25,398 nucleotides of DNA from Escherichia phage CBA6. Below, piece by piece: positions 8,801 to 25,273 of the stretch. Each line of letters starts with the position of its first letter. Within the stretch, counting starts at the first letter, position 1. The notes under the pieces are model-generated. The model saw only the letters and a program-made list of their open reading frames with translations, was not told where the DNA came from and did not search any database. The position numbers were made by a program, and so were the translations under genes. Where the stretch lies: the sequence record KM389302.1. One strand, given 5' to 3'.

Positions 8801-10664
8801 GGATGAAGCTCGAAGTCACGTCCGCGCCAGTATCATTTTTGACAGATACCAATTTCCAGCCATCGTGATTTGCCAGAGGTCTACTGGTTTGGGAAGTAAA
8901 AGTCACAGACTCTGTGGTTTCAGTTATCGTCTTCGTTTTGATCGTGGCCGTAGTGCGGATCATCAGTGCCAGCAAATTGATTGACTGGTTAGCATTACCG
9001 CTACCCAGGGAAATCTGCAAAGCCGATCCCACCGGAGAACCAGTCAGTGACAAAGAGCCAGAGATATCAAATTGCGCTTCTGAACCATCGGATTTCGCAG
9101 AAGAATACAACGAAAATTCAGGAGAGAAACTATATCCCAGTGGGGCTGAAATAGAACCAGAACCGCTATTGTCCAGAGTGACTTTGTAAGTTCGGAGAAC
9201 GGTGTAGTTGATATCCACGGAACCTGTTGGCGCTAATGTTTTAACACCGAAGACCGGAAGAGAGAAGATCAGGTCTACCATAGAACTCTGGTTAAACTGG
9301 TTGGATTCCAGTTCAGCAGAGAACATGGTGATACCACTTTCTTCATAAGATACTTTGGTGATAGTGGACGCGTCCCCAGTCACAACCAAATCACGCATGT
9401 ACAGACGGAATTCAGTTGAATTGCGTTCAGCAGATATACACAACGCCGTGGCTTGAGCAGCTCCGGACGCGTTCAATAACTTGTATCGCACAGTGCGAGA
9501 TATTACTGGAACACCTTTGGAGTTCTTGGTGACCAGATAATTCCCTGTAGCGACTGCAACAGGCGTGTTATTCAGGACATCGGTATCCCGTGCCTTGTCA
9601 ACGATCACCAACTCTTCCCCGACGTTTTCGATACGACGACCGCGAACATAGGAAATACCTGGTTTCATTACAGACACGAATTTACTTTCGTCGCCGCCAT
9701 CAGCAGCATTGAATACACCACCATTGTTATTGACTTTCAAGTGTTCGCGGATGTCGATCTGATGCGTTGAAACGTTGTAATCGCCGTTGGTTTCATACGT
9801 CCGTTGAGCCAACGTGTCTTCCAGAATATTATAGGTGGACTGAGTCACCATAGACTGGATTTTACCATCACGAACTTTGGCCAGTTCAACAAAGTCTTCA
9901 ACCACAGCATCATAATCAAATCGAGATAAGACCAGATCTATTCGAAGACGATGAGCGCCTGGGGCTTTGGAATTAATCGTTCCCTGAGCATTTGAATAAA
10001 GGGATTCGTCTTCAGATTCAGTCACGATGGTTTCAGTGACTTTAAACCCGACGCGATGGGAAGAAGTGTTTGAAGTTTTATCGACGATGAGAGTCGCGTC
10101 ATCAACATCAAGGAACATTCCACGAATGAAGTAAACGCCCTTCGTCATACGAGCGACGATAGAACCAGTCACCGCAGCTGCGATACCATAACCAATACGA
10201 ATGAAGTTGTCATTGACGTCATAGGTTTGGAAATACAGATTGTCGTTGACGTGGAAGCCATCTGCATTACCCACTTCTGTCATTTCAAGGATGGCCAACA
10301 TCGTATCCGGAGCAGACAGATCACGTTCAAGAGATAGCACACGCGCTTTGGCGTTATTGTCTTTTCCCAGAACATAAAGTTCAGTAATCCCTTCCAGATC
10401 AGTGAACTCAGTGCCACCAGCCAGGGTGAATTTCATAGACACAGCGGCGTTGGTAATCGTCAGACCGCCAGGAATAACCATAGATCCATCTTTGAACAGA
10501 TGGTTTCCCAGCTTTTCAATCTGGTCTTGCAGAATAGTCTGCATCTGGTTCAGTTCACGTGTCTGAACCTTAATAGGCATCGGGCGAAAAAGAATCCGTG
10601 AAAACCGTTTTCCAGGATTCCAGTCGTCCCAATACGGGCGACGGTTTAGATTTGTAGATTGCAT
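5826..10664 (-). CDS. Very large virion structural protein (1612 aa), probably a tail fibre or baseplate component; function not assigned
   Basis: Uninterrupted 4.8-kb ORF in the late module. GGAG 9 nt upstream of the ATG, with CTAAATA and TATAAAT motifs further upstream. S/T/N/G-rich composition typical of fibrous phage proteins. No confident homologue recalled. Confidence 0.6.
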   Translation of the reverse strand: MQSTNLNRRPYWDDWNPGKRFSRILFRPMPIKVQTRELNQMQTILQDQIEKLGNHLFKDGSMVIPGGLTITNAAVSMKFTLAGGTEFTDLEGITELYVLGKDNNAKARVLSLERDLSAPDTMLAILEMTEVGNADGFHVNDNLYFQTYDVNDNFIRIGYGIAAAVTGSIVARMTKGVYFIRGMFLDVDDATLIVDKTSNTSSHRVGFKVTETIVTESEDESLYSNAQGTINSKAPGAHRLRIDLVLSRFDYDAVVEDFVELAKVRDGKIQSMVTQSTYNILEDTLAQRTYETNGDYNVSTHQIDIREHLKVNNNGGVFNAADGGDESKFVSVMKPGISYVRGRRIENVGEELVIVDKARDTDVLNNTPVAVATGNYLVTKNSKGVPVISRTVRYKLLNASGAAQATALCISAERNSTEFRLYMRDLVVTGDASTITKVSYEESGITMFSAELESNQFNQSSMVDLIFSLPVFGVKTLAPTGSVDINYTVLRTYKVTLDNSGSGSISAPLGYSFSPEFSLYSSAKSDGSEAQFDISGSLSLTGSPVGSALQISLGSGNANQSINLLALMIRTTATIKTKTITETTESVTFTSQTSRPLANHDGWKLVSVKNDTGADVTSSFILDGGQRDAGYYKANLLSTAGAISGTYTVVYQYFAHSSGDFFSADSYTSMDYKDIPNYTSSTSGAVYGLADSLDFRPKITNGTSDTDMVRPNTAVILDTEYYLPRIDAIYLADNGVFGVARGISSNNLASPAIPANSMRLYELLIPPYTPNIDDIQIRTIDNRRYTMRDIGKLETRISNVEYYTSLSQLESSAMTQQVFDPITGNPRFKNGIAADPFKDFRLIDDLSEDWMGSIDTENGRLRPFVQQNAVDMTPVGWNKVMDGMVVCNYTPEISVNQEYATTTINVNPYAVFNWEGFLKINPTTDYWFENYYVAPRVINETINTRGTVQEGSVYGTWRTVSVSDRVWEPHGAGGVWWGYRYRTTVSARDVTTYTYTDKTTTTMTGEQIVETQVIPYMREIDISFDASGLRPFTRMYAFFSGRDVNLYCKPNGGNFGDPITTDANGAVKGVFRVPQNDTIKFNTGDNVFRLTDSPVDSKSADDTLTNAEIVHKSFGKKQGIQKTFVNTRVLGYTASTSTETSTSEVVVDQWRDPIAQSFMVATKIGGEYIEGVEVFFSTKSRDVPITLEIREMENGLPSHTVITRKTLNPSEVTISTDSSGGTKFTFDYPVYLQASTEFAIVLLANTQDYNAYIAEMGKKNLLSNEYIAKQPYTGVFFTSSNGSTWSPNQMADMKFRVYRCNFAAGQNVVTFDPKLGPKQRPLGLNTLNCVSGSSVVTVFAPGHGLVAGNNVTLSELTGGCGFTPEQLNKTFTVTDASYTSFKIDVGSAADSNGQIGGDNASFLGNYLVDMFYASVTNSALEGSILKLEYRYRDATSNSMSDWAEFETDTDVALPTEGIYRQVGDFQIRATMTRSENNVYTAPMIDGDDLSVIFNSYGVDPFEDVFKYVTKDIGFDNPCSTVKLFFGAMLPSQSSMKVQVKLLRAGQEMDSVAWEDVTPTSPLVNDGSTFFEYEYDKTVASNNPFVGLKVRALVRGNRVAPPSFKDFRLIALA
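5837..5860. repeat. 24-nt exact direct repeat, copy 1 (caataagacggaagtctttgaatg), at the 3' end of the 1612-aa gene
   Basis: Identical 24-mer also at 8135-8158. Encodes the FKDFRLI motif at the protein C-terminus. Confidence 0.85.
8135..8158. repeat. 24-nt exact direct repeat, copy 2, internal to the 1612-aa gene
   Basis: Identical to 5837-5860. Encodes the internal DPFKDFRLID motif. Confidence 0.85.
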
Positions 10665-10696
10665 TTTGATGCTCCATCGAGTGCCATTTATAGAGA

Positions 10697-10703
10697 TATT
10701 TAG
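10697..10703 (-). promoter_or_regulatory. Candidate late promoter element CTAAATA (with adjacent TATAAAT) upstream of the 1612-aa gene
   Basis: Minus strand reads tataCTAAATAtctcTATAAATggcactcgatggagcatcaaaATG. Confidence 0.4.
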
Positions 10704-10725
10704 TATACAGCCAACAGACAGATAG

Positions 10726-10750
10726 AAATAAAAACCCCGCCGAAGCGGGG
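10726..10750 (-). terminator. Intrinsic terminator with a UUCG tetraloop, downstream of the 653-aa tailspike gene
   Basis: Minus-strand RNA folds as ccccgc-uucg-gcgggg followed by uuuuuauuu. Confidence 0.65.
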
Positions 10751-10757
10751 GATTTCA

Positions 10758-12719
10758 TCAACCGATTGTGAGATTAAATTCCATTTCTGTTACGACTGCA
10801 GATGGATTGTATAACGTAATTGTCCACGAAAAATCGTTAGTTTTCGAAATGACACAATATCTTCCTGTGCCTGGGGAACTAAAAGATGCCGCTAATTTAT
10901 TCATGCTTGTAAATGAATTTATCACCCAAACACCAGGAGATGTCTTCGTTACCGAACAATTAACTGCACTCGTCAGAGCACCAGAACCATTTACAATCAC
11001 TGATATTGGTTCGTCCAGAATTCTAACCACTCCGGAGTTTAATGAATATGAATTCATAACAGTTCCAATACGATTTCCCTGTAAATATGTGATGGCAGTA
11101 GAAGCCAGTCCCGTTCTATTCAACAATACATTTGTAACTCCCAAACCAGTACAACCCAATATTTGTGTGTCAGACACTAATCCAGACGTGGTGCTGGTTT
11201 GTTCACAAACCGCGTCCACAACATTACTACCGTTGTAACAATTGAAAGATACATTTATCAATTTATTTCGTCGTATTGATTTGCCTGCATTAGATTGTAT
11301 CTGTAATACACGGTTATATTGGCCAGGTGTATTAATCTGCACAAAACAATTTTGAATAACATTGTCATAACTATCAGTTAATGAAACGTTATGGTCAGAA
11401 ATACCGAAAGCAGATTTATAATCTCCATTATTGTTCATTTGAATAAAAACACCTTCAACGGTGTTATTGCTACAACCTTGTATTGCTATGACGTGGTCAT
11501 TCCCGTTAAATGCTCCTGCGGAAATAGAAACAAATTTACCACCAATGATTTTGCAGCCAGAACAACCTCTGGAAAATTTGATATTATTGTTGCCGCCAAC
11601 GACACCACCGACGTCGCCCAAATTAGCAGAACTCATTATTCCTTCACAATTTATGAATTGGAAATCTGTGGTTGGGAATCCAACACCATCTGCTGACGTC
11701 CCATGGAAATTAATCAATAACCCATTTTCCGCATAACCTTCAGATACATAGCCACCTTTACAACCCAGAACCTCCATATTCCCGCCAGCTTGAGAAACTC
11801 CAACGAATCTCGGATATGTGATTTCTGGGTACAATGCACCTATAATAACAAGGTTCCCGTGATTTGGTCCTTTAAAACCTGTATTTTCAAATACACATTT
11901 GTTAGACCTAACCCCAACACGCCGAGAATTATCAGTTGAACCATAAGATGTGTTCCCCAATCTTAATGGGGTTACTGTTGCTGTGGTTGTCGTGAAGACT
12001 ACACCCGAAACTTCAGTATAATTTCCTGTTAATTCGATAGCCCCTTTATTCGTGTCAAACGAATTCCCCAACAAATTGATTTTGTTTCCGTTGCCAATGA
12101 TGCGTTTACTGTCTAAATTGTTCACCACGTTGCTCGACAACCCAACATCTATATCTAAAATGATCGTATTATACACATTTAGAAGATCATTCAATATATT
12201 TGAAACGTCTTCGCCAGAAGAAACCCAATTAGATATGTATGTTTCTTTCTCGCCAATATTATTTTTTACAAAAATCCAAGCTGAACCAGAAATACCACCA
12301 GTATTTTCCAACTTTTGGGTAGAGGGAACAATTTTTGGAAGAGACCCACCCCAACGATAAAAACAATTATTATGGCGTATCATTTCATTCTTAGTACGGA
12401 TTGTAAACCCATCTGAAAACTCTTCCGTCATTTCGATAAATTCGCCGCGCAATACAGCCAGCGCACCCAAATCTACAGTGCCTCCGGAGTGCGTGAGGAT
12501 GCCGTCGACTAAACTAGTGACCGTTACAGCACCAATGTTAGAAGGAAGAGCATAGGCACGTTGGGTCACCTTATCGTAGATCACTTTATAACCAGACAAG
12601 GACTGCCCTGATTTCGCATAAACGACTTCCGACTTTTTACACCCAAATTTACGAGCAATACTGTCTTTGTTCGATTCTTTTGAAGTAGAACCTTTTGGTT
12701 GAGCAAATTGCGGATTCAT
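10758..12719 (-). CDS. Tailspike protein, putative polysaccharide depolymerase (653 aa)
   Basis: N-terminal module (ARKFGCKKSEVVYA...YKVIYDKVTQRAY...YRWGGSLPK) is shared with the other tailspikes. The rest is N/G/S/T-rich with short repeats typical of a parallel beta-helix. AGGAG Shine-Dalgarno. Confidence 0.7.
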   Translation of the reverse strand: MNPQFAQPKGSTSKESNKDSIARKFGCKKSEVVYAKSGQSLSGYKVIYDKVTQRAYALPSNIGAVTVTSLVDGILTHSGGTVDLGALAVLRGEFIEMTEEFSDGFTIRTKNEMIRHNNCFYRWGGSLPKIVPSTQKLENTGGISGSAWIFVKNNIGEKETYISNWVSSGEDVSNILNDLLNVYNTIILDIDVGLSSNVVNNLDSKRIIGNGNKINLLGNSFDTNKGAIELTGNYTEVSGVVFTTTTATVTPLRLGNTSYGSTDNSRRVGVRSNKCVFENTGFKGPNHGNLVIIGALYPEITYPRFVGVSQAGGNMEVLGCKGGYVSEGYAENGLLINFHGTSADGVGFPTTDFQFINCEGIMSSANLGDVGGVVGGNNNIKFSRGCSGCKIIGGKFVSISAGAFNGNDHVIAIQGCSNNTVEGVFIQMNNNGDYKSAFGISDHNVSLTDSYDNVIQNCFVQINTPGQYNRVLQIQSNAGKSIRRNKLINVSFNCYNGSNVVDAVCEQTSTTSGLVSDTQILGCTGLGVTNVLLNRTGLASTAITYLQGNRIGTVMNSYSLNSGVVRILDEPISVIVNGSGALTSAVNCSVTKTSPGVWVINSFTSMNKLAASFSSPGTGRYCVISKTNDFSWTITLYNPSAVVTEMEFNLTIG

Positions 12720-12750
12720 AATAAGAATCTCCTGTTTTTCTCTAGTAAAT

Positions 12751-12767
12751 ACCCTCCGAAGAGGGGT
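12751..12767 (-). terminator. Hairpin with a UUCG tetraloop between the 926-aa and 653-aa genes; possible attenuator or weak terminator
   Basis: Minus-strand RNA folds as accccuc-uucg-gagggu, followed by only a weak U tract. Confidence 0.35.
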
Positions 12768-12773
12768 ATATTT

Positions 12774-15554
12774 TTAAATAGAAGAATCCAATATACGGTA
12801 ACTAATTAACTTATTAGGGTCTACAGGATTAATCAGGTTGTAGTACCGTGAAGCTACATAATCATTCTCAGAAGAGAACATACCAACATACACTTTAGCA
12901 CCTACACCAGAACAGGCATCCCCACCAGCATTGCTATCCGAGAAGAATGTTAATGAAGAAGTTAATCCGAATATAGAATTAAATGGTACAGCTAAATAAG
13001 CGCCTCGGAATGACCGTCTGATTCTCTTACCCGTCTGAATATTAAGAATACTCCACCAGAAATATCCAGGTTTAGCACCAATAGCTATATGATATGGCAC
13101 ACCACTTTGTAGTTTAAGGTCGTTAGGTAAATCCCCAGATAAAATTTGGGTTGTACCATCGCCCCCCAATAGCAAAGCAATTGTTTGTTTTCCGGAAGCG
13201 TCTATAACTAATTGAAGATGAAGACTGTTGGATGTATCACTAAACCCTGAACCAATGGCCATGAAGTTAAATACTTCAGCTCCAGATATGGTAGGTACTA
13301 CAACAGCAGCCATGGTAATACCTTCTGGACCTGCTGTTCTTGAGTACAGTAATTTATCTTTGTTGGCTTGTGATAGTCTCAGACCATTTACTTGCCCTAC
13401 AGAAGATGGGACACTTACATAAACAGGTGTAGTGCTAACACCATCAAATGTAGGGGTCTCGTTCATGGTTTGCAAACCAGTCTTGGAATAATTAACCAAT
13501 CCGTTAATGCTCAGGTCGGAATTTGTGGGGTTGATAATATTGTTATCACCAATAAAGTTAATGCCCATATAACCAGTCTCAACCACACCATTAATGGTGA
13601 CGCTGCAATCATTAGACAGGAACTGAAAATTGCCCGCACTAGAGTTAGCACCTGAACCACTATTCGCGGCATAATTGAGTCCTACGAATCCGTTGATAAC
13701 TGCATCACTTTTGTTAAATACGATGTTGTAGAAAGTGTTGTTAGCGTTGATGCCGTTACGATTGGTGTTCAATCCGTTCATGGAAATTGAATATGAATCG
13801 CTAATCTCAATGCCATTCCCGCCACAATCTTGTACCTCAATACCATTAATAACCATATTCTGGCTATTATTAATAGTAATGCCTGGGAACTGTCCTACTG
13901 TACCATAAGGTTGCCAGTTAGCCCAAATGAATTTACCACCAATAATACGACCATTACCACAACCATCAAGAACCAGACATTGTTTACCGCAGGTATTAAC
14001 CTGGATATTTGTCCAAGTCCAATCAGTAGTAGCACAACGGACGCCCACCTGATTGATGTGGTTGACTAAAAGAGAATCTGTAGTAACACTAAAGTTACCA
14101 CTATCAATATTTAACCCATATTCATCAAAACCTGCTATATGGACCTTAGAAATACACAAGTCGCGTCTTGGGTCTGCGGTAGTGTGGAACGGATAATCAG
14201 CTGAGAGACCTGAAGGAGTTTCTATATAGATACCTGTTGTACCCGCAGTAAATGATGTGCCTTGTTGTGCACCTGTGCCATATACCCCAAAGGAGTCTAA
14301 TACAATAAGGGAGCATGTATCTTTTATGGTAATACAATTCCCAGTAGCAGAAGGCAACTGATGCAACCTGGAGTAATGTAATCCAGACCCATAAATAGAC
14401 GACGTATTATATTTTAACCGGATATTGCTAACGTAATGTACACCAGTTAATTGTGTGGCCTTACCACTGTCCACACAAGATTGTACTGGAATAGTATCAT
14501 CATTAGAACCGCCCAAAGCACCAAACATGAATGGGTTAACTCTATCAGCATTAACACGTAACCAGGCTGCGCCTCCAACAGTTTTGATCACAGTGCCGTT
14601 ATCATCAGTCTTTCCTGTACCATCAATTAACGCACGGAATACCCCTCCACCAAGAAGAGTACCCGCAGTGTGTTGCTTAAGAATAATGCGTTGTCCATCC
14701 ATAGTGGGTTCAGTATTCCTGAGATCAGCAACAGAATGGCATTCTCCGATATACTTGGCACCATCATTGCGCCCCAGAGTGTTTATCACATTAATAAATG
14801 AATCTTCTAAAGGCAACAAATCCACTACAACATTACCTGGATTATAAGTAAGTTGCCCATTACTAACAGAAGAAATCACTGAACCATCAGGGATAGTTGG
14901 TAAACCATAAATAATCTGCGCCGCTGAATCATAAACAACTTTCTTGTCGTCGAGTAAAGATATGGTATCAGTGCTGACAATGACTTCAGAGTCTTTTACG
15001 TTAGCCGAACGGGCAATTTCTTGGATACTGCGATCGAACGCCGGACTGATGTTCGGTTGTTTAACAGACATCTCCGCAACAACCCACACCCCTGCAGTCA
15101 GCGCAGTTTGTAAGGAAACTTTCCCAGTCGTACTGTTGTATGAATATTCTATATCAGGAGTTTTGTACTCACCACCGATATAAAGAGACTGGACACCATA
15201 AGAAGTAAAGTCAGGCGTGAATTCAGTTTCTCCACCCACGGCTTGAAATTTGTATATTCGAATACCTTTAGAAGTATCTTCTGGTGAAAGAATTTTATCG
15301 AATAAGCAATACACAACATCGCCTTTGGACAATGCGCGCCCGAGATTCAACGTATTCCCGTCTATCTCGAAGTTGTCTAACGGAACTTGCATGCCGCCGT
15401 TAATTGTGATAACACCAGTGACAGGATAGAAAGGTAGAGAAAAGAAAGTTTCTCCACCGACACTTGATTTATAAGTGAAAGGAATCTGGTGGGGAGCTGT
15501 GACTACGCCGCCGAATAATTCTTCTACATTTCTGGTCATTTGAAAATACCCCAT
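12774..15554 (-). CDS. Tailspike protein with a T7 gp17-like N-terminal anchor domain and beta-helix body (926 aa)
   Basis: N-terminus IPFTYKSSVGGETFFSLPFYPVTGVITINGGMQVPLDNFEIDGNTLNLG fits the pattern of podovirus tail-fibre N-terminal anchors. Central region has tandem NG-rich beta-helix coils. The start may instead be the second ATG at 15539 (MTRNVEE...). Confidence 0.7.
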   Translation of the reverse strand: MGYFQMTRNVEELFGGVVTAPHQIPFTYKSSVGGETFFSLPFYPVTGVITINGGMQVPLDNFEIDGNTLNLGRALSKGDVVYCLFDKILSPEDTSKGIRIYKFQAVGGETEFTPDFTSYGVQSLYIGGEYKTPDIEYSYNSTTGKVSLQTALTAGVWVVAEMSVKQPNISPAFDRSIQEIARSANVKDSEVIVSTDTISLLDDKKVVYDSAAQIIYGLPTIPDGSVISSVSNGQLTYNPGNVVVDLLPLEDSFINVINTLGRNDGAKYIGECHSVADLRNTEPTMDGQRIILKQHTAGTLLGGGVFRALIDGTGKTDDNGTVIKTVGGAAWLRVNADRVNPFMFGALGGSNDDTIPVQSCVDSGKATQLTGVHYVSNIRLKYNTSSIYGSGLHYSRLHQLPSATGNCITIKDTCSLIVLDSFGVYGTGAQQGTSFTAGTTGIYIETPSGLSADYPFHTTADPRRDLCISKVHIAGFDEYGLNIDSGNFSVTTDSLLVNHINQVGVRCATTDWTWTNIQVNTCGKQCLVLDGCGNGRIIGGKFIWANWQPYGTVGQFPGITINNSQNMVINGIEVQDCGGNGIEISDSYSISMNGLNTNRNGINANNTFYNIVFNKSDAVINGFVGLNYAANSGSGANSSAGNFQFLSNDCSVTINGVVETGYMGINFIGDNNIINPTNSDLSINGLVNYSKTGLQTMNETPTFDGVSTTPVYVSVPSSVGQVNGLRLSQANKDKLLYSRTAGPEGITMAAVVVPTISGAEVFNFMAIGSGFSDTSNSLHLQLVIDASGKQTIALLLGGDGTTQILSGDLPNDLKLQSGVPYHIAIGAKPGYFWWSILNIQTGKRIRRSFRGAYLAVPFNSIFGLTSSLTFFSDSNAGGDACSGVGAKVYVGMFSSENDYVASRYYNLINPVDPNKLISYRILDSSI

Positions 15555-15640
15555 AAAGGATTTGCCAATATGGGGTATTTAGTCTGAACTAATAAAATTT
15601 TATGAACAAAGGTATGATAAAAACCCCGCCGAAGCGGGGT
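15548..15640. repeat. About 90-bp intergenic cassette, copy A
   Basis: Near-identical to 17678-17770. Contains a palindrome (aaatacccca / tggggtattt), the CTAAATA motif, and the UUCG-loop terminator. Confidence 0.8.
15576..15582 (-). promoter_or_regulatory. Candidate late promoter element CTAAATA upstream of the 926-aa tailspike gene
   Basis: Minus strand reads cagaCTAAATAcccc, 21-36 nt upstream of the candidate ATGs. Confidence 0.4.
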
Positions 15641-15647
15641 TTTTATC
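15616..15647 (-). terminator. Intrinsic terminator with a UUCG tetraloop, downstream of the 675-aa tailspike gene
   Basis: Minus-strand RNA folds as ccccgc-uucg-gcgggg followed by uuuuauc. Confidence 0.65.
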
Positions 15648-17673
15648 AATCGGCCGTTTTGATTGGTGAATACAGCCCGCCTCCGCGATGAATCCATGCA
15701 TAAACGTTATCTGTAGTTGGGGTTATCGCCGAACTCCGATAGAACATAAAACCAACAGGAGCACCGCTATAGTTAGGCATGGCATTATGTTTGCCTTTCG
15801 CTTTGTCCCACCCGCAAAACGTTGGCATTGGCGTTGCATGATATGCTGACGCATACACGCCGCCTATAGCAATCGACTTACCAGAATTTGTAGTAATCAT
15901 AATACGAGATGCTTTTGTTCTATCAACAGGTGCTGAAATTTTGTATAATCTCCAGCCATTTCCCATGTCGTAGAACTTAGTAGGATCACCGTAAATAGAA
16001 CCCTGTCCATCTGCCGATTGAATGTAAATGGAGTTAGGCTCACCACGCACAAACAGGGCGGCTCGAACGAAACCTGTAGCTGAACGAAGGCAGTTGATAG
16101 CAAAGTATACTTGTTCCGATACGCTTTCGTACCCTACATATCTACCGCATCCTGAAGGCTCATTTGCATCGGTTCCAAAAACCAAACCAGAATTAAGCCC
16201 ATTGAAGTCTACAGGATATCCGTTATTGTTAATAACACTCCAGTCACCACTTTGGCAAAGGTTTGAACCGCTCATGGATATAAAGTCACCACCCTGCATT
16301 CCAGCAGTATGGTCACTGAACATCGCGTGGTTCATATAGTGCATTGAACTTGCCATCATGCCGAATTGGCAACGATAACCGACAATGGACCACGGACCGC
16401 GGATTTTACCGTTTCCGTTTACTTCGCCATATAGACCAATGACGGTGTTATGCTGCGCAGGTACAGACACGTTGTCTAGAACATACCCCGCCGAACCACT
16501 AGCGTCCAGACCGACGAATGTGTTCGCATTACCTTCAGTATTACCACCTTCTGGAACCCATGTATGAGAACCTTTAATAAGAACTGAACCCACACATTGG
16601 GTGTATACGTTTTGATTACAAGACCCGGAAGATATATCAATAATAATTTGCCCGCCACCGGATGTGGTTCCAGCACGAATACGCGTGAAGTTATTCCAGT
16701 AACTACCACCGCGCCAAGGAATTAAGCCTGTAGGCGTAGTTTCTATACCGCCTTTTAACGTGAAGTTTGCCGAGCAATCTATGTTAGATATGTTATGAAA
16801 TTGTGCACCTTGAACTAACATATTACGACAGCTAATACCCTGTATGTCCAAAGAACGCGCATGAAGTATTAAAAAATCCGCATCAGGGATAATACCAAGA
16901 CACTCCACATTACAACGAACAATAAATTGTGCGTAATAAGCGTGATAGCCGGACAAATTGGCTATTGAAGTTTTGTAAATTCCTTTTGGTATGAATAACT
17001 TTCTTCGGTTTTTACCATACTCAACGAGAGCATTATAATCACTGTTAATCGCATCCAGAGCGGCACAAATAGCTGCTGTGTCATCCGTGACCCCATCCCC
17101 TACGGCACCCCATCCTCGAATGTCACCTTCATCACGCCAGCGAGCCATCTGCAATTCTGGGTAAAGAGTGGCTCCACTTGGATTAGTAATCTGGCTTCTT
17201 AATGACGCATCACCAACACTAACCCATGCACCTAAATCAACGCCGCCTGAGTTATCGGGTGTAGAACCAGCGGCAACTACCTTTGGCAAAGAACCATCCC
17301 ATCGATATTTTTCATCATCGTGAACAAGAAGTTCATTTTTCACATTAATGGTATGGCCGAAATTAAAAGAACCAGGTAAAGTCACATATTCTTCGCGGCT
17401 TACTGCTAATTCCCCAAGGTCTACAGAACCAGCGGAATGAGTGAGGATAGCTCTTTCATCCAGACTAATTGCAGTTGTCCCTGAAACAATACCGGAAGGG
17501 AGAGAATAAGCCCGTTGGGTAGACTCATCATAAATTACTTTAAATCCACTGAGATCAATACCGACAGTGAAATAAACGACTTCGTCTTCTTTGACACCGA
17601 AATTTCGAGCGATAGATTGTTTGTTAACTTCTATGGAAGTAGAGCCGCGTGGTTGATTGAATTGAGAAATCAT
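15646..17673 (-). CDS. Tailspike protein, putative depolymerase of the pectate-lyase-like beta-helix type (675 aa)
   Basis: Shared N-terminal attachment module (ARNFGVKEDEVVYF...FKVIYDESTQRAY...YRWDGSLPK). GWGAVGDGVTDDTAAICAAL matches the hallmark N-terminal motif of pectate-lyase-superfamily beta-helix enzymes. Confidence 0.75.
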   Translation of the reverse strand: MISQFNQPRGSTSIEVNKQSIARNFGVKEDEVVYFTVGIDLSGFKVIYDESTQRAYSLPSGIVSGTTAISLDERAILTHSAGSVDLGELAVSREEYVTLPGSFNFGHTINVKNELLVHDDEKYRWDGSLPKVVAAGSTPDNSGGVDLGAWVSVGDASLRSQITNPSGATLYPELQMARWRDEGDIRGWGAVGDGVTDDTAAICAALDAINSDYNALVEYGKNRRKLFIPKGIYKTSIANLSGYHAYYAQFIVRCNVECLGIIPDADFLILHARSLDIQGISCRNMLVQGAQFHNISNIDCSANFTLKGGIETTPTGLIPWRGGSYWNNFTRIRAGTTSGGGQIIIDISSGSCNQNVYTQCVGSVLIKGSHTWVPEGGNTEGNANTFVGLDASGSAGYVLDNVSVPAQHNTVIGLYGEVNGNGKIRGPWSIVGYRCQFGMMASSMHYMNHAMFSDHTAGMQGGDFISMSGSNLCQSGDWSVINNNGYPVDFNGLNSGLVFGTDANEPSGCGRYVGYESVSEQVYFAINCLRSATGFVRAALFVRGEPNSIYIQSADGQGSIYGDPTKFYDMGNGWRLYKISAPVDRTKASRIMITTNSGKSIAIGGVYASAYHATPMPTFCGWDKAKGKHNAMPNYSGAPVGFMFYRSSAITPTTDNVYAWIHRGGGLYSPIKTAD

Positions 17674-17933: not shown

Positions 17934-17964
17934 AAGGCCCCGTAAGGGGCCTTAGTTTTATTTT
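17934..17964. terminator. Strong bidirectional intrinsic terminator
   Basis: aaggcccc-gtaa-ggggcctt followed by agttttatttt on the plus strand. It also lies just downstream of the minus-strand core tailspike stop at 17958. Confidence 0.7.
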
Positions 17965-20900
17965 GTACTAACGAAATCAAATTCGTGAAGAGCCATTGAA
18001 CCTGATGATATTCTTGCATCTAGTAAGGTGCCATCAATGGAAATTAACTTTTTATTCGCAATTGTTCCTATAAGAACACCATTACTAAAAAACTGAACTA
18101 TACCAGGTCCTTTACCGTTGTATTTAGCGGTTAAAGCGCCCTTCATTGGAGCTGAAGGTAAAGCAATGACGGTCTCTACTCCAGCAACGGATATAACACC
18201 ACGTATATCACTCCCTGTATTAAATCTGAATCCGAAATAGTTTCCTGATTCGAAACTTCCGGAATGTAATAGTCCTCCTGGTATGTTTTGCATGCTCCAT
18301 GCGATACTAAAGGCGCGGTAGTTGTTTGTCTCAAACTCATACGTTAATCGATGTTTTCTTGTTACACGATACCGACAAGTTCCACCAGAACTTGCTGCTT
18401 GCATATATAACCCATCATCCTCGAAATAAGTAAATGTGTCCGCAGGCTGAACTGTTGTTTTAGTGAATTTATCATGGTCCTGGAAAAGTGTATGGTAATG
18501 CGTTATGTCGTGGCGAGCGAATGCGTTCACACCCATGATTGTTTTAGATGCTTGTTCTATAATAAAACCAGCCATAACGCCATCAGAATACATTTGCGCT
18601 TTTTGACCAATAACAGGATGAAAATCATTCGCGATAATAGCCCCACCAATCGGCAGCGCGACATATTCGGTTAGCACCCCAGATGCTGGTGGTAGATTAT
18701 CAAGTTGGGTGCTGTTATAGTTAATAATACCGCCGTGTTTTGTTACTAATCCTGCCTTATTTATCGCGTTTCCAAATTGCGGCGATTCAACGCTTATTGT
18801 ACTGTTGTAAGCCTCAATGCATTTATCGACGCCTACGCCGTTGAATGATGGTTGAAATACGCCACCGCTGGTGCAGCCATAAAATTCAATGGATGCGTTT
18901 TCGTCAGAATGCGTGCGCCCCTTGAAGTTAATCTGTTCAATAGATGGTGAATATGGGGTTCCGCCACAGTTGAACAGTTGAATAGAGTTAAGGCTAACTT
19001 TGCTTGGGTCTGCTGACCTGCTCCCAATTTTTATTCCGGCTTGCTGGCTTGAACTAGGAGGGAACAATGGCGTACACCCACGCTTACTGCGAACAACGAC
19101 ATCCTCAGGAGTACCGGTGTTGCCGTAATTATCTGCAATACTAATTACAATTCGCTGCCAGTAATTGTTTGGAATGGCATCAACGGCATCTTGTACAGTG
19201 GGGTAATCTTCCGGAACCATGAGTGTTACAGGCATCGTGTAAATACCTGGCACTGTTGACGAGTTAACACCAAATGGGTGAATGTAACCACGATACGGAT
19301 CATTACCTCCGATAGTATTGATAAACCCTTCGATGCGCACTTTTGATGTATCAGTGTACAGATATCCACACTCGCCAATATCTACGCGGAACTTCGCAGG
19401 GATAGTCAGATCTTCTGTAAATTTCACTGGAACATTGACAAAAACACGACCATTACCAGAAGCTATGGCGCGTTTGAAAGCCTGCGTGTAGTCTGGTGCC
19501 GCTGGGTCTCCTGGCTCAACAAATGCGCGAAGGTCATAAAGTCTTTCCTGCTGACCGCCAGGGATTAAAAAACCTTTATCTCCTGTTAATTCAGTTCTTA
19601 ATGATGCATCACCAACGCTAACCCATGCACCTAAACCAACGCCGCCAGTTGTTGTCGGAGTTGAGCCAGGAGCCACAGTTTTAGGAAGTGTCCCATCCCA
19701 ACGATACTTACCGTTCGTATGGGTGAGTAATTCATTTTTAACATTGATAACAGCACCAGAATCAAATGTCCCAGACAAGGTAACATATTCTTCACGAGAT
19801 ACAGCTAATGCGCCCAGATCAACACTACCAGCAGAATGCACAAGTACAGCCGAAGAACTAAGGCTGACTGCCGTGGTTCCAGTCGGTAGCTCTGGAATAA
19901 AATATGATCTCTGTGTTACTTTATCATAGATAACTTTATACCCGCTTAACACCGCACCAACACTAAAATAAACAACCTCTGTATCTTTAACATTGGTTAC
20001 ACGAGCCACTTCCCGCAAAGTATAATCAATTTGATTATAGATGTTTGGCGTTCCATTGATAATTACAACAACTTCATCCTCTGCATCCAGTTCTTGCGCA
20101 AGAGTGATTTTACTGGTTAATGGATCAAATGTGAACCCCAGATTTTTATACTGGCGACTTCCGTTTATATCAATGGCCGGAACATCATCGACAACGATGT
20201 CTAACGTGATTTCGGTTTCACCACCAATCGCAGAACCCCCATTATAGACCCAGGTAATCGTAGAAGAACTAGAACCACCGCCATTACCCAATTGAATAGG
20301 AGTATATTCAATCACCTGAAGTTCTGTGCTGGCTGGCAAAGAAGGACTGAAAGTGATCACATTCCCATCTAGTGAATATTTGGATTCCGCAAGACGTTTT
20401 CCGTCAGCATACACGTCCACGATTGTTGGTGGCGTATTGAGAGTGACAGCGCTTGTTTCAGACGCCAAAATTTGTGTAAAAATCTCACGACTGTAGACAC
20501 GGCCTTGGCCAAGGCCGACGCCGGATGTGACAACCCAACCTTGTTCAGGCCCAGACCAAGTGAAAGTCGCCGACACGTTATCGGTGGATATCGTCATATC
20601 TTCGGTGGAGCCGTAAAGGTTATTTCCCGCTGGAGATACAGTCAATGGGTAAGTGGCGAATTTTCCATAAGCATCACAAATAGTAACGGAATCCCCAACA
20701 CGTGTAGGGGGAGGGAGAACCACTGTAGATGCCCCTGTGGTGTTATTAATGAGATAGCCGCGACCTTCTAACAAATTGCTAGAGGGAGCGTGAGGGAGCG
20801 TTTCCCAGCGTATTCCACCGCCCCCCCAAAGACAACCAACCACCGTTTTCGTAATAACCTTCAAATTCATCGCTATCAGGATTGTAACGTACAGAAGATG

Positions 20901-21051
20901 GAAGACCTGCAACTTCAGTATCTTCAGGGAATGTCATTACGGCACCAGGGGAATGCTCAATAGTGCCGGAGTTGTTGAAGCCTTTTATGTTCGAAGACTC
21001 AGAAGTTTCTAAACCCAAAGGGAAAAGAGGCTGTGTTGGTTTGTTAGCCAT
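17958..21051 (-). CDS. Core tailspike with a T4 gp10-like N-terminal baseplate-attachment domain; reading frame broken at a G7 homopolymer (about 1030 aa if fused)
   Basis: The 90-aa ORF (20779-21051) has a native-looking N-terminus (...VRYNPDSDEFEGYYENGGWLSLGG). After a one-base frame change at the tract it continues into the 984-aa ORF (GGIRWETLP...GRGYLINNTTGASTVVLPP...). The nominal N-terminus of the 984-aa ORF has no ribosome-binding site. Downstream are T7 gp17-like modules, a complete copy of the shared tailspike attachment module, and a beta-helix body. Confidence 0.65.
20821..20827. repeat. G7 (plus-strand C7) homopolymer tract at the frame junction of the core tailspike gene
   Basis: Minus strand reads TTG GGG GGG CGG. 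Deleting one G gives the in-frame fusion ...GGWLSLGGGGIRWETLP... Confidence 0.9.
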
Positions 21052-21088
21052 TTGTAATACCCCTAAATGTATTCATGTCATCTAGGGG

Positions 21089-21095
21089 TATTTAG
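21089..21095 (-). promoter_or_regulatory. Candidate late promoter element CTAAATA upstream of the gp10-like core tailspike gene
   Basis: Minus strand reads aaaaCTAAATAcccctagatgacatgaatacatttaggggtattacaaATG, with a tacccct(a) / (t)aggggta palindrome. Confidence 0.4.
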
Positions 21096-21097
21096 TT

Positions 21098-22288
21098 TTA
21101 GAAATAAGCTGCAATAGAATAATCGACAGAACAAGCGGTTGTTGTATTTGCATTAACAACGGAAATTCTCAATTTGCCACCCACCACAGACCCTGTGAAC
21201 GTCACTGTACCGCTCGTACTTTTCTGAACCAACAACTCTGATTTGATCGTTCCGTCACGAGTTATGGTTACTCGATATGTGTCAACAACGTTACCTGTCC
21301 CCCATTGCGCAGTTACCAGTATTTGACAAAGGTTTACCAAATCAAAATCTGGAAGAGCCGTCGTTCCCGAAGCCGAAACCGTGTATGACGACAAATTCGT
21401 TTTGGTACGATAAACTGCGTTCCCTAAACTGTTATCAATTGTGGTCATTTTGGCATTATACGTTGATACATCGACCTTACCAGTCGTGAGAGAACTGATA
21501 CTGCCGTCCAAGGAAGTCATCTTCGTATTATATGTGCTGACCTCGACTTTATTACCCAGAGACGTGTTGATATTGGAGATACTCAAATCCAACGACGCCA
21601 TCTTAGTGTTGTAAGTTGAGGTGTTGACTTTCCCGTTCAACGACGTGTTGATGTTATTAATCTGGGACTCTAGACTCAGCATATCTGCGTCATACGCTGT
21701 CGTTGTCACATATCCATTAAATCGGTTGTCTGCAAACAACGCATCAAAAAATGCAGTCATTGTCCAATAACGCGCTCCAGAATCTGTCTGTACAGGAACT
21801 GAAGTCGGCAACGTTGGTCCGGTATACGCAGACAATCTGGTGAAATCCAAATTGAATTTGTAATATCCGGATGTCAACAACTCCCCAGCCAAACCAGAAC
21901 CAGGCGGGGTAGTGTCTTCACTGACGCCATGCTTTCTCAACATGCTCAGGTTAACACCATCTGTCGAGTTCGTTGGTTCATCTGTGATTGAAACGGATTT
22001 TCCAGCGGGGACTTGTATGCCCCCATTGGTCACCAACAAAGCATTGAAAGTCTTTTTGCCATTGATTGTTTGTTCACCACTATCTGTCCGAATAACTTTG
22101 TTGGCCAGAGTATCATTGATTGTGTCAACAGATCTTTTCAACTCATATGTCAGACGAGCAGATGGTGGAAACAACGGGTCGTTAACTTCAAAATCGTTAA
22201 TAACGTCATTTTTACTTACTTTGTCATCAACAGAACCCAATATCTGATCTATCTGCTGACCTGTATATTGACTCAGGAAATCGGCCAT
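21098..22288 (-). CDS. Fibrous protein with tandem ~24-residue repeats (fibritin- or tail-fibre-like)
   Basis: 396 aa. Repeats STYNTKMASLDLSISNINTSLGNKVEV / STYNTKMTSLDGSISSLTTGKVDV / STYNAKMTTIDNSLGNAVYRT (about nt 21390-21680). TINGKKTF...GGIQVP is a tail-fibre-like motif. AAGGAG Shine-Dalgarno. Confidence 0.6.
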   Translation of the reverse strand: MADFLSQYTGQQIDQILGSVDDKVSKNDVINDFEVNDPLFPPSARLTYELKRSVDTINDTLANKVIRTDSGEQTINGKKTFNALLVTNGGIQVPAGKSVSITDEPTNSTDGVNLSMLRKHGVSEDTTPPGSGLAGELLTSGYYKFNLDFTRLSAYTGPTLPTSVPVQTDSGARYWTMTAFFDALFADNRFNGYVTTTAYDADMLSLESQINNINTSLNGKVNTSTYNTKMASLDLSISNINTSLGNKVEVSTYNTKMTSLDGSISSLTTGKVDVSTYNAKMTTIDNSLGNAVYRTKTNLSSYTVSASGTTALPDFDLVNLCQILVTAQWGTGNVVDTYRVTITRDGTIKSELLVQKSTSGTVTFTGSVVGGKLRISVVNANTTTACSVDYSIAAYF

Positions 22289-22290
22289 TT

Positions 22291-23145
22291 TTAGCTCCTT
22301 GTGCTTTCTAGGAATACAGTAAATCCAGCAGGATGGAAATGCTGACGGAAGACGCGCTCAAACACACCTTCAAAATCAGATACGTCGCCTGGGACTCCTA
22401 TAACATAAGTGTATTCATCATAATAGTAATCATCACGCATCCCTGTCGTGCCGTCACATTCAAAATTTCCGTCCAGACCGCCTATGTCTTCTTTCGTAAA
22501 ATAGACGCTGACTGGACAACCGAAATATATCCAAAAGAACAATTCAATCGCTTTCTTTGTTCCACGTATTTTATAGATGTGTTTCAACAATTTCAGCCAA
22601 CGCGGATGATCCAGAGTTCTTCGTTTAGTTCCTTCGATATAAACAGAGAACGTATCGCCCGTGGCCGTCAATAAAGAATCCGAACCGACTGGGATAAAAT
22701 GTCCAAATTCTTGAAATGATTTATCGACAGTTCGTTGAAACCCAAAATCATTATACCAGTCGTCTATCTGCTTGTTCTTGTCTTCAATAGAAAGCAACGG
22801 CCTTCCATCAGCGTCTAGCAGCGTCTCGGCATCAAGAGCCATCATGTTCTCAAATGTTCTGACCAAAAATTTATCTGACAAATAATCTTTGGCTTCAGAG
22901 CCTGGCGTTTTGTCGGCCTTTAAATCTATGAGTTGTTTAACAGGAGAATCTTCACTCTCAGGATTCATCCAACTCGAAGTGTCTGCCAGATATGCCAAAA
23001 TTTCTTCTTGAGTGAAGCCCTGCTGCCGATACAGCCAATTAAAGAACGTGTCCATGAACTCGATGAACAGAGGAAAATCGTTTTGGTAAAACAACGGGGT
23101 TTCATACTTAACCCCATTGTGACCATTATTAAGATCTTTGGACAT
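22291..23145 (-). CDS. Hypothetical baseplate-associated protein (284 aa from the ATG at 23145)
   Basis: Located between the gp6-like and fibrous genes. GAGG Shine-Dalgarno 8 nt upstream of the ATG at 23145. Start overlaps the gp6-like end by 17 nt. Confidence 0.5.
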   Translation of the reverse strand: MSKDLNNGHNGVKYETPLFYQNDFPLFIEFMDTFFNWLYRQQGFTQEEILAYLADTSSWMNPESEDSPVKQLIDLKADKTPGSEAKDYLSDKFLVRTFENMMALDAETLLDADGRPLLSIEDKNKQIDDWYNDFGFQRTVDKSFQEFGHFIPVGSDSLLTATGDTFSVYIEGTKRRTLDHPRWLKLLKHIYKIRGTKKAIELFFWIYFGCPVSVYFTKEDIGGLDGNFECDGTTGMRDDYYYDEYTYVIGVPGDVSDFEGVFERVFRQHFHPAGFTVFLESTRS

Positions 23146-24910
23146 AGCGCACCTCTGGCGTAACAACCACATCACCGATTTTGAATACCTGGTTTTGTGA
23201 AGCCTGTATATTCTGATTCAGGCCATCTGGTAGCACAACGATCGTTACTCCTTCAGTATTATAGTTTGAAACCGTAATCTGCTGAAGATCTACGACGCCG
23301 TTGGCGTAATCCACAACACCAGTCTTTTGAACCAAAAATTCTTTAGTGGTGTCGTTGTTGTTCACTTTATACATGTTCAAATCGCCATTGTCATCGCGCA
23401 TATAATAAGTGAAATCAACTTCGGCCGGAAGCGGTTTAAACCCTGTTATTTTCACAGAACCAGGTTTAATGCTTCTCCCATAACTGAAAGTAAAGCTATC
23501 CAACACACCATAATCAGGTTTGAAATGACGTTTATAACCGACAGACGTGATATTTGAGTTAATGGAACGTTCCATTTTCGTAATTGCTTCCTGCAATATC
23601 TCTTTGTCGAATAACTGATCAAAACCACCGAGATTGTTTTCACCCCATTTGGTGATACTATTACCCACCACCACTTTCATTTGTTCTTCAACATAAACCG
23701 TTGAAGTCGGATCCCAAAATATAGTCGTGGCGACTTGGATATATGTGATCTCAGAATCTACCACTTTGGGGGTGATGGACCCAACGTTGTATTTGTCCAA
23801 CGCGGCAACGATATCAGCCTTCTCTGCGTCTGAAAGAGTCTCCCCAACAGATGGTATCACAGCGATATAAACGTAACCAGAATCCGGAGGGGAAAGCGTA
23901 TCACCCCCATATGATTTAGCACGGGCAACGTTAGAAAACAAGCGTTCAGTTAAAACACCGTAATCGGTTTCCGTAACGGCAGCGCCATCAGCCTGATAAG
24001 CCAAAGGTGCCAGACGCTTCGTATCTTCAATAGATTCCGGATCTCCCCCACCCGCACTGCGTTCGGAAACCAATTCTATATCAACCTGGTTAAACCCGCC
24101 TATCGAAGATGCGGAAGATAAACTAGTGATGTCATTACCTTCAGCGCCAGAAGTTTCTAAATACTGGAGGAAAATAACGTTGCCATCTTCTACTCGGCGA
24201 GACAGATAACCATCTCCGAACTCAAACACATACAGGCCATCTATCCCTAATTCCACAAAATAGAGATATGCATATTGATTCAGGTCGAACGGACTGTTGT
24301 ATCTCTGGTATGTCGTTGAAACATCAGAGGACTCTGATTCCTGTACCTGTACGACCAGATGATTGATATCAACATTTTCCGAAGGTATCGTATAAGTCGA
24401 AATCGCGCTTCCTTCAACATCATATGTCTTGTACAACCAGTTACCCTGAATCAGTTTCACGTTGTTGAACATGTAATAACCGTCTGTTGTCAACGTGGCG
24501 GACACGGGTTTTTCAACAGTAAAGTTGTAGGAACTCCCATCCTTCGCCCCAACGAACATCACACGGCGGTCCATAATGATCTCATTAGGAGCTGTACTGG
24601 CGTCATACGGCGTTACTTTGATGTTGGCATACATGTATGCCGCCCGATAGTTGTCGGGGGTATAAGAAAGAAAAGCAGCAGACAAACCAACATTAGAACG
24701 TTGATTTGCTGTTTTTAAATGGCCTTCACCATTAAGCATGTTCTGCATAAAGGCTATGGCGTTCGCATCAGATGCCAACAAACGAATAATAGCACTAAGA
24801 CCGGAACCTTCAAAGTCATAATCTTTAAAGGTGGGATCAGCTTTCATTCGCTGTTTGATAATGTACTCAAAGGCTCTGACGTCGAGTGAAGGAACTGTTT
24901 GCGTGGCCAT
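23129..24910 (-). CDS. Baseplate wedge protein (gp6-like)
   Basis: DYDFEGSGLSAIIRLL and GGGDPESIEDTKRLAP resemble recalled T4 gp6 motifs. The listed ORF start at 24961 is TTG; the ATG at 24910 has GGAG 7 nt upstream. Confidence 0.65.
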   Translation of the reverse strand: MATQTVPSLDVRAFEYIIKQRMKADPTFKDYDFEGSGLSAIIRLLASDANAIAFMQNMLNGEGHLKTANQRSNVGLSAAFLSYTPDNYRAAYMYANIKVTPYDASTAPNEIIMDRRVMFVGAKDGSSYNFTVEKPVSATLTTDGYYMFNNVKLIQGNWLYKTYDVEGSAISTYTIPSENVDINHLVVQVQESESSDVSTTYQRYNSPFDLNQYAYLYFVELGIDGLYVFEFGDGYLSRRVEDGNVIFLQYLETSGAEGNDITSLSSASSIGGFNQVDIELVSERSAGGGDPESIEDTKRLAPLAYQADGAAVTETDYGVLTERLFSNVARAKSYGGDTLSPPDSGYVYIAVIPSVGETLSDAEKADIVAALDKYNVGSITPKVVDSEITYIQVATTIFWDPTSTVYVEEQMKVVVGNSITKWGENNLGGFDQLFDKEILQEAITKMERSINSNITSVGYKRHFKPDYGVLDSFTFSYGRSIKPGSVKITGFKPLPAEVDFTYYMRDDNGDLNMYKVNNNDTTKEFLVQKTGVVDYANGVVDLQQITVSNYNTEGVTIVVLPDGLNQNIQASQNQVFKIGDVVVTPEVRYVQRS

Positions 24911-24950
24911 GATAATCTCCATCACCTGAGTTTGAATATGGTGTTGAAGA

Positions 24951-24957
24951 TATTTAG
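24951..24957 (-). promoter_or_regulatory. Candidate late promoter element CTAAATA upstream of the gp6-like gene
   Basis: Minus strand reads ctttggCTAAATAtcttc, about 40 nt upstream of the ATG at 24910. Confidence 0.35.
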
Positions 24958-25273
24958 CCAAAGGGAATCAAAACGCTCTCGCGCGTTAATTTATTCGAAT
25001 ATACTCGCGAGGGGGCTGACGCCCTCGCTCGTAACACCGCCTTGACAGGCAGTCCCATTCCGCAGCCATGGAGGCTGCTTCTCGTTGTTCGTTAACACTC
25101 ACAACTCGAAGGGCACCGCGTTAAGATACAGTTTCTTGATGTTGTAGAAAAGTAGTTTTTACCTATTAATAATCGCTGTCATTATTTTATTGGCCTTTCT
25201 TGGGGTTATATTCAATAAACATATTCCCAATATAATAGTGGGGACATTTAATTAATTTGACGAGGCTCAGGAA

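Follow-up and report, generated by a model that had tools for sequence, protein, structure and literature searches.

In parallel trimeric coiled coils, insertions that add two residues or six to a heptad background let the three chains cross as a beta-layer (Hartmann et al. 2016, PMC4786415). Two registers only have been described, a-b-c-beta3-e-f-g and e-f-g/c-beta3-e-f-g; position beta1 favours K or a hydrophobic residue and beta2 a small A or V, and the known beta-layers belong to homotrimers only, bar one pseudo-threefold SLH domain, with many examples from phages (PMC4786415). An internal beta-layer is found, for instance, in the prophage tail fibre HylP1 (2C3F), within ...QKADKETVYTKAE... 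(PMC4786415). The baseplate of phage T4 offers a second point of comparison: there, gp9 attaches to gp7 through its N-terminal domain, and its C-terminal domain receives the long fibre coaxially (PMC3004832). Here we compare with these systems a protein of 396 amino acids (aa; 42.4 kDa) encoded on the minus strand at 21098..22288 of a 25,398-nucleotide (nt) stretch from Escherichia phage CBA6 (KM389302.1), referred to below as the window, in which an earlier inspection of the letters and their open reading frames (ORFs), the sequence-only reading, had noticed tandem repeats. We consider it reasonably probable (about 0.62) that a small homotrimeric fibre of the Kuttervirus (Ackermannviridae) virion has these repeats as its shaft, which would serve as a spacer between conserved ends.

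The array consists of four tandem units spanning aa 196-293 (21410-21703). Ungapped self-alignment with BLOSUM62 gave its best off-diagonal score, 150, at an offset of 27, compared with a mean of 31.3 (standard deviation 5.2, maximum 53) over 500 shuffles of the whole protein, which corresponds to z ~23; with shuffling restricted to aa 190-300 as a control for local composition (n=1000, maximum 63), z was ~19. The tandem repeats of the sequence-only reading are thus real, with a periodicity that formal analysis finds significant at the protein level. Its uniform period of ~24 residues applies to the third unit, the successive periods being 27, 27, 24 and ~20; its three to four copies resolve into three clear copies of STYN(T/A)KM..(L/I)D preceded by a divergent one (TAYDADMLSLE), and its coordinates, 21390-21680, have to be moved ~20 nt to the right at each end. 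Unit 1, the divergent one, comprises 27 aa (aa 196-222; 21623..21703, minus strand, as for all features below) and reads TTAYDADMLSLESQINNINTSLNGKVN. It is followed by unit 2, likewise of 27 aa (aa 223-249; 21542..21622), with the sequence TSTYNTKMASLDLSISNINTSLGNKVE, by the 24-aa unit 3 (aa 250-273; 21470..21541), with the sequence VSTYNTKMTSLDGSISSLTTGKVD, and by unit 4 of ~20 aa (aa 274-293; 21410..21469), VSTYNAKMTTIDNSLGNAVY, whose end is degenerate and runs into the C-terminal domain. At the DNA level, Tandem Repeats Finder reported no repeats in the gene, which is explained by synonymous divergence of the units: their cores have pairwise nucleotide identities of 0.37-0.59, and amino-acid identity between them reaches 0.76. 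The duplications behind the repeat are old and have been maintained by selection acting on the protein, and the motif is absent elsewhere in the six-frame translation of the window.

In models computed with AlphaFold2 (AF2), all of them monomeric, each unit forms one helix, and the breaks fall at conserved K-V-[D/N/E] triplets: the helix of residues 196-220 breaks at V221-N222 of K-V-N, that of residues 223-245 at N-K-V-E and that of residues 250-269 at G-K-V-D, the last helix extending from 274 to 292. Hydrophobic residues at unit positions 4, 8, 11, 15, 18, 22 and 26 make up a heptad/hendecad core, the pattern of a coiled coil. Across 120 homologues, the unit boundaries follow the consensus [GN]-K(89%)-V(93%)-[DNE]-[TV]-[ST]-T-Y(96%)-N-x-K-M-x-x-L-D, with D, N or E following K-V in 82% of cases and a hydrophobic residue at -3 or -4 before the triplet. 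In the same set, 75 of the 76 distinct units measure 20, 24, 27, 31, 34 or 41 aa, that is, 3 or 6 modulo 7, for which the chance expectation is 2/7. Lengths of 20, 27, 34 and 41 can be written as 11 + 7n + 9, and those of 24 and 31 as 11 + 7n + 6. Under the proposed anatomy, a unit would begin with a hendecad, Y-N-x-K-M-x-x-L-D-x-x, with Y, M and L as core residues, continue with n heptads (one here, with I and I/L in the core) and close with the K-V-[D/N/E] element in nonad (a-b-c-KVD-e-f-g) or hexad form (KVD-e-f-g). In the 27-aa units, the a-b-c positions would be taken by the L-G-N that precedes K-V-[D/N/E]; the 24-aa unit would do without them, and x-S-T would follow the triplet.

The unit lengths obey the insertion rule of beta-layer coiled coils, with two residues inserted by the nonad and six by the hexad, and the K-V-[D/N/E] boundaries agree with the residue preferences at beta1 and beta2, followed by e-f-g. 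Because the units show all of these sequence-level hallmarks, we infer a trimeric alpha/beta coiled-coil shaft, which would consist of four alpha-helical coiled-coil segments clamped by beta-layers and would be ~14 nm long, with ~3-4 nm per unit. Helical heptad/hendecad segments broken by K-[A/V]-[D/E] at nonad or hexad spacing are likewise found in HylP1 (PDB 2C3F) and in the stalks of trimeric autotransporters (OMP100). With HylP1 the array also shares the context of a phage fibre, and its KVExSTYNTK resembles the KADKETVYTK of HylP1. Unlike in HylP1, the beta-layers here are predicted from sequence; homology between the two is undetectable, HylP1 not being among the PDB sequence matches, and the Tyr of the array lies one residue off the register of the second beta-layer of HylP1. 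A HylP1-style double beta-layer in the hexad spacing was rejected because of this displacement, and the observed unit lengths are all accommodated better by one beta-layer per unit.

On the N-terminal side, the shaft is preceded by three segments. Residues 1-64 (22097..22288) form a helical module, a putative baseplate anchor, with AF2 helices at 2-5, 10-21, 26-33 and 42-64; with a majority fraction of 0.81, they share the highest conservation in the protein with one other part. They are followed by a neck, aa 65-128 (21905..22096), with the BppL_N-like motif VIRTDSGEQTINGKKTF. The N-terminal ~130 aa recur at the N terminus of longer, 505-673-aa fibre-like proteins (P0131, P0134, P0136 and P0139), as is typical of a virion-attachment module. 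BppL_N (PF18338) matches the 396-aa protein with E 1.7e-4 to 1.1e-3 and 18.9-21.5 bits, under the gathering threshold of 25.8, and matches the homologous N-terminal module of P0136 with 31.4 bits, above that threshold. In PDB sequence searches, the single protein returned chance matches only and the family profile a short BppL match only, in which aa 51-96 align to the BppL chains of phage TP901-1 (E 0.024); Pfam yielded nothing above threshold for the whole protein or for its domains. The aligned residues correspond to the N-terminal helix of BppL (ORF49) of the lactococcal phage TP901-1 and to its '(G)xQTIxGxKTF' neck. The match is limited to ~45 residues and is sub-threshold for BppL_N here, and the rest of the protein is unrelated. 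The fibre-like N terminus of the sequence-only reading is borne out both by this match and by the sharing of the first ~130 aa with longer fibre-like proteins. The neck has low confidence in the monomer model; it is probably an interlaced beta structure in the trimer. Within aa 1-64 lie two isolated motifs of repeat-like sequence, QYTGQQIDQILGSVDDKV and LTYELKRSVDTINDTLANKV, with K-V at the end of each, and the helix-plus-K-V element seems to serve as a cap beyond the tandem array as well.

The third segment, aa 129-195 (21704..21904), was modelled by AF2 as a small beta domain, with strands between 130 and 176 and a connecting helix at 177-192. It is the most variable part of the protein, with 29-38% identity between genera compared with 64-82% for the C-terminal domain. 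The fastest evolution is therefore found in the middle beta domain and not at the C-terminal tip, which is unusual for a receptor-binding fibre. A PHROG match to a 'minor head protein' was dismissed as compositional, as it covers the coiled-coil region only.

Beyond the shaft, the C-terminal ~100 residues (aa 294-396; 21101..21409) are predicted with good AF2 confidence to fold into an eight-stranded beta-barrel or sandwich. The best structural matches of this domain are gp9 proteins, with T4 gp9 at rank 1 (Foldseek E 2e-5), so that it has the beta-domain fold of gp9; a weak match to DUF7154 (E 0.0094) was also recorded. The likeness to T4 gp9 (PDB 1QEX/1S2E) includes the order of parts, namely a helical N terminus, a beta domain and a C-terminal beta-barrel, as well as the genomic slot, from a gp7-like wedge gene to a gp10-like protein, and the presumed nature of a trimeric peripheral baseplate protein. 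The trimeric state is suggested here by the BppL-like neck and the gp9-like domain too. There are also differences from T4 gp9: sequence similarity was not found, the 396-aa protein is 108 aa longer and has a ~100-aa coiled-coil shaft before its last domain in addition to the BppL-like neck, which gp9 lacks, and Ackermannviridae have no long tail fibres to carry.

Published mass spectrometry of virions points to the presence of this protein in the particle. In phage LIMEstone1, ORF161, which lies between a tail spike and a gp7-like wedge gene, was recovered as a protein of 42.69 kDa with 11 peptides and 50.6% coverage (PMC3296691); orthologues of 403 aa have a computed mass of 42.7-43.1 kDa, matching ORF161. 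In phage Sajous1, gp135, the neighbour of TSP4 (tail-spike protein 4, gp136), was represented by 74 spectra (PMC10892097). By position and mass, ORF161 appears to be an orthologue, and gp135 is probably another. The protein matches phrog_3838, a PHROG without annotated function, over its full length (E 3.9e-218), and the family is present in at least 283 phage records of the ViI/Ackermannviridae type, under labels that range from hypothetical protein and structural protein to tail fibre, tail protein and baseplate wedge subunit. Taken as a fibre, the protein would have a stiff spacer in the shaft, with the helical anchor and the BppL-like neck at one end and the gp9-fold barrel at the other.

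Several points weigh against a homotrimeric fibre shaft of this kind at the baseplate. Over the shaft, the predicted local distance difference test score (pLDDT) is only 56-79 per ten-residue block. The 35-aa unit of P0071, a member of the family, breaks the modulo-7 rule, as do several units of distant or unrelated proteins, and both the trimeric state and the beta-layers are predictions from rules of residue spacing and composition. We infer the placement at the baseplate periphery, as well as the role as a spacer. As regards gp9, neither T4_gp9_10_N (PF07880) nor T4_gp9_10_C (PF23618) was matched in Pfam searches with the separate domains, even at E <= 10; when the family was compared by hhalign with an alignment of 42 gp9 sequences, the probability was 1.9% (0.0-20.5% by domain, none significant), and the comparison with the single T4 gp9 sequence was non-significant. 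The gp9 link is one of fold resemblance and synteny, and homology to gp9 is not claimed. It is also ambiguous which gp9 domain is matched; the C-terminal barrel is favoured, because the domain has eight strands and because TSP4-N, whose XD1 domain is similar to the gp9 middle domain, is not among the structural matches. Finally, a 2024 review describes Ackermannviridae as lacking gp9-gp11 (PMC11721090).

Gene order raises the question of what the fibre would do. The window is colinear with the T4 series 6, 7, 8, 9, 10, 11, 12, wac, 13, 14, 15, 16, 17, and the gene for the 396-aa protein sits exactly between the gp7/gp8-type wedge genes and TSP4, which has gp10-like XD domains, as gp8 and gp9 do in T4, 7-(8,9)-10; the order of wedge gene, 396-aa-type gene and TSP4-type gene is also kept in two further loci, L004 and L005. 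This position would suit a connector equivalent to gp9, a functional refinement of the homotrimeric fibre and not another structure, in which the N terminus would be held in the gp7-like wedge, the barrel would be a socket for the TSP4 anchor and the length of the shaft would set the stand-off of the branched tail-spike 'star'. We regard such a connector as unlikely, although its attractions are several. The best fold matches of the C-terminal domain are to gp9, which in T4 carries the long fibre coaxially (PMC3004832); for the TSP4 anchor domain, the literature offers only an inferred partner on the baseplate (PMC8825819); and the C-terminal domain shows the highest conservation across phages that infect different hosts, a pattern more in line with a protein-protein interface than with a receptor site. 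However, published models place the TSP4 anchor domain directly on the baseplate (PMC11721090, PMC8825819), gp9 homology found no support at the sequence level, and a C-terminal pattern that by eye looks similar also ends the longer fibre-like proteins P0131 and P0136, which fits a generic fibre-tip or folding domain.

Locus L004, positions 8893-16344 of a 156-kb food-metagenome contig, bears on the same question. It belongs to a distant, Ackermannviridae-like relative, with wedge genes, a homologue of the 396-aa protein without repeats, receptor-binding proteins and VriC, and its receptor-binding proteins have Peptidase_S74 and Gp34_trimer domains instead of tail-spike beta-helices. The first of these proteins retains an N-terminal anchor of the TSP4 type, with 41% identity (E 1e-16) over aa 1-86, its distal part being different. 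The repeat-less homologue therefore co-occurs with a receptor-binding protein that has retained a TSP4-type anchor, as a connector would predict, but such co-occurrence is expected anyway from shared ancestry, and the interaction with TSP4 is putative. The full version of the idea strikes us as quite unlikely: the protein would be the 'missing' gp9 of Ackermannviridae, derived from gp9 and equipped with a modular alpha/beta stalk, offering a socket to the TSP4 anchor and thereby carrying the whole tail-spike complex, with the number of repeats tuning the stand-off of the spikes.

Alternatively, the homotrimeric fibre could be an independent short side fibre or 'prong' with a free end, standing alongside the tail spikes; its barrel would contact a conserved feature of the enterobacterial surface or, like a foldon, simply nucleate the folding of the trimer, and how far the fibre reaches would depend on the shaft. 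The layout of anchor, neck, shaft and C-terminal knob is that of a typical fibre, the N-terminal module is common to longer fibre-like proteins, many records label the protein as tail fibre or tail protein, and prong-like structures of unknown composition have been seen on Ackermannviridae baseplates (PMC11721090). The same review nevertheless ascribes the prongs, speculatively, to VriC (PMC11721090), and electron micrographs of LIMEstone phages are without tail fibres according to their authors (PMC3296691). Moreover, the tip is the most conserved domain across phages of Salmonella, Escherichia, Dickeya, Klebsiella and Enterobacter, whereas receptor-binding tips are usually host-variable. We view a free side fibre as possible but doubtful.

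The sequence-only reading had further likened the repeats to fibritin or to the shafts of short fibres. The latter comparison is not supported: the repeat region is predicted to be helical, unlike the shafts of the T4 short fibre (gp12), which are beta-structured. Likeness to T4 fibritin stands in kind, as a segmented helical coiled-coil fibre with short non-helical breaks and a non-helical C-terminal domain; the breaks of T4 fibritin, however, are varied loops, and those here are a single conserved K-V-D motif. If it were a fibritin (Wac) equivalent, as the label 'Fibritin (T4 Wac)' of LIMEstone1 ORF161 has it, the protein would make up the collar or the whiskers of the neck; micrographs of ViI-like phages show a collar (PMC3296691), both proteins have a segmented coiled-coil architecture, and another fibritin-like gene was not found in the window. 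We nonetheless hold this identity to be very improbable. In hhalign, the protein and T4 Wac were related with a probability of 1.6% over 13 aligned residues only; Pfam gave no match to Fibritin_C (the foldon), the C terminus being the ~100-aa eight-stranded beta-barrel; the slot of wac, after the gp10-12 equivalents and before gp13, is taken by VriC and a 113-aa ORF; and the N terminus resembles the anchors and necks of baseplate receptor-binding proteins. The fibritin label of ORF161 is not supported, since Wac homology and a foldon are missing and VriC occupies the slot.

Comparison of relatives shows how a shaft of this kind varies. Homologues range from 278 aa (P0126, with no repeat) to 441 aa (six units), and the differences sit in the shaft; P0121 has no canonical units and a short shaft stretch only, proteins of the Dickeya-phage type have units of 24 and 34 aa, and those of the Klebsiella-phage type have four to six 24-aa units. 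Among the clusters of length 396 recovered by the search, 66 of 70 have the 27/27/24 pattern, which is thus nearly fixed in Kuttervirus. The Kuttervirus-like exceptions are only phage A221, with one extra unit, and one metagenomic sequence in which two units are fused. In Escherichia phage A221 (ON862890.1; locus L005, 3676-3854), a perfect 81-bp tandem duplication of 2.2 copies adds one 27-aa unit, and it is either very recent or an assembly artefact. A distance of 165 bp separates the A221 gene from the record's end. The earlier proposal that repeat number may differ between isolates therefore holds between genera and only rarely between isolates: unit number and unit length, and with them the length of the protein, vary chiefly between genera or lineages of Ackermannviridae, from zero to six units. 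The repeat motif is a widespread shaft module, being present as well in long fibre-like proteins that are unrelated (P0130, P0135, P0141, P0143 and P0145). Shaft length would evolve in quanta, through duplication or loss of whole units and through changes of 3, 4 or 7 residues within units.

The repeat itself is an ordinary fibre-shaft element, of a known kind. The array is of use because it illustrates, cleanly and in nature, the length rules that beta-layer coiled coils follow, and because it marks a spacer of adjustable length, in a family found in at least 283 genomes of the ViI/Ackermannviridae type, phages that are used in biocontrol and host-range engineering. The gp8/gp9 slot, the gp9-like C-terminal fold and the high conservation of the C-terminal domain together turn the link between wedge and tail-spike complex into a testable question, and the combination of gp9 slot and gp9 fold is a modest addition to the review's statement that gp9-gp11 are absent (PMC11721090). 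If the protein is a connector, engineering of tail-spike sets must take the stalk into account.

Expression signals around the gene were read from the sequence. A Shine-Dalgarno sequence, AAGGAG (22295..22300, minus strand), lies 6 nt upstream of the ATG, and the TAA stop codon of the preceding wedge gene (22291-22293) ends 2 nt before the same ATG, a spacing that suggests translational coupling of the two genes. The 46-nt spacer between the gene and the start of TSP4 contains an RNA hairpin with a perfect 14-bp stem (21056..21092, minus strand), with a minimum free energy of -19.1 kcal/mol (z -4.7) that was equalled by none of 200 shuffles. The hairpin has no U-tract and is not called by the terminator scan; 5-6 nt separate the end of its 3' arm from the TSP4 ATG, and it could stabilise the mRNA or modulate translation of TSP4. 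The hairpin may belong to the same unit as the 396-aa gene.

The window is 98.8% identical in nucleotide sequence to Salmonella phage vB-SalM-SJ2, and the region matches more than 200 Ackermannviridae genomes, for the most part of Kuttervirus. All of its genes lie on the minus strand. In transcription order, a gp6-like wedge protein (23129-24961) comes first, followed by a 284/294-aa Baseplate_wedge protein (22291-23175; Pfam PF23786, E 6e-154) and, directly after it, by the ORF with the repeats (21098-22288). Downstream lie four tail-spike genes, TSP4 to TSP1, each with a TSP1/Gp66 N-terminal domain; then VriC (1612 aa), the 113-aa ORF, gp13-, gp14- and gp15-like neck and tail genes, and finally TerS and TerL. 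For the PF23786 wedge protein, the best PHROG (phrog_3465) is labelled 'head closure Hc2', in conflict with Pfam, which probably explains the entry 'gp134 Head closure' beside the tail-fibre genes in the Sajous1 proteome table.

The TSP4-like gene is split in the window into a 90-aa ORF (20779-21051) and a 984-aa ORF (17958-20912), which match residues 1-92 and ~75 onward, respectively, of the same tail-spike PHROGs. In the alignment with SJ2, the homopolymer at 20815-20821 is C7 in the window and C6 in SJ2, and the split reflects a frameshift mutation or else an error in sequencing the homopolymer; a 10-bp duplication was rejected as its cause, as the alignment shows a one-base homopolymer difference. 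The large terminase ORF (20-2152, minus strand) encodes 710 aa, and its residues 125-228, upstream of the Terminase_6N domain, gave a weak Intein_splicing match (27.2 bits against a cut-off of 35.8 bits), which may represent an intein or a remnant insertion.

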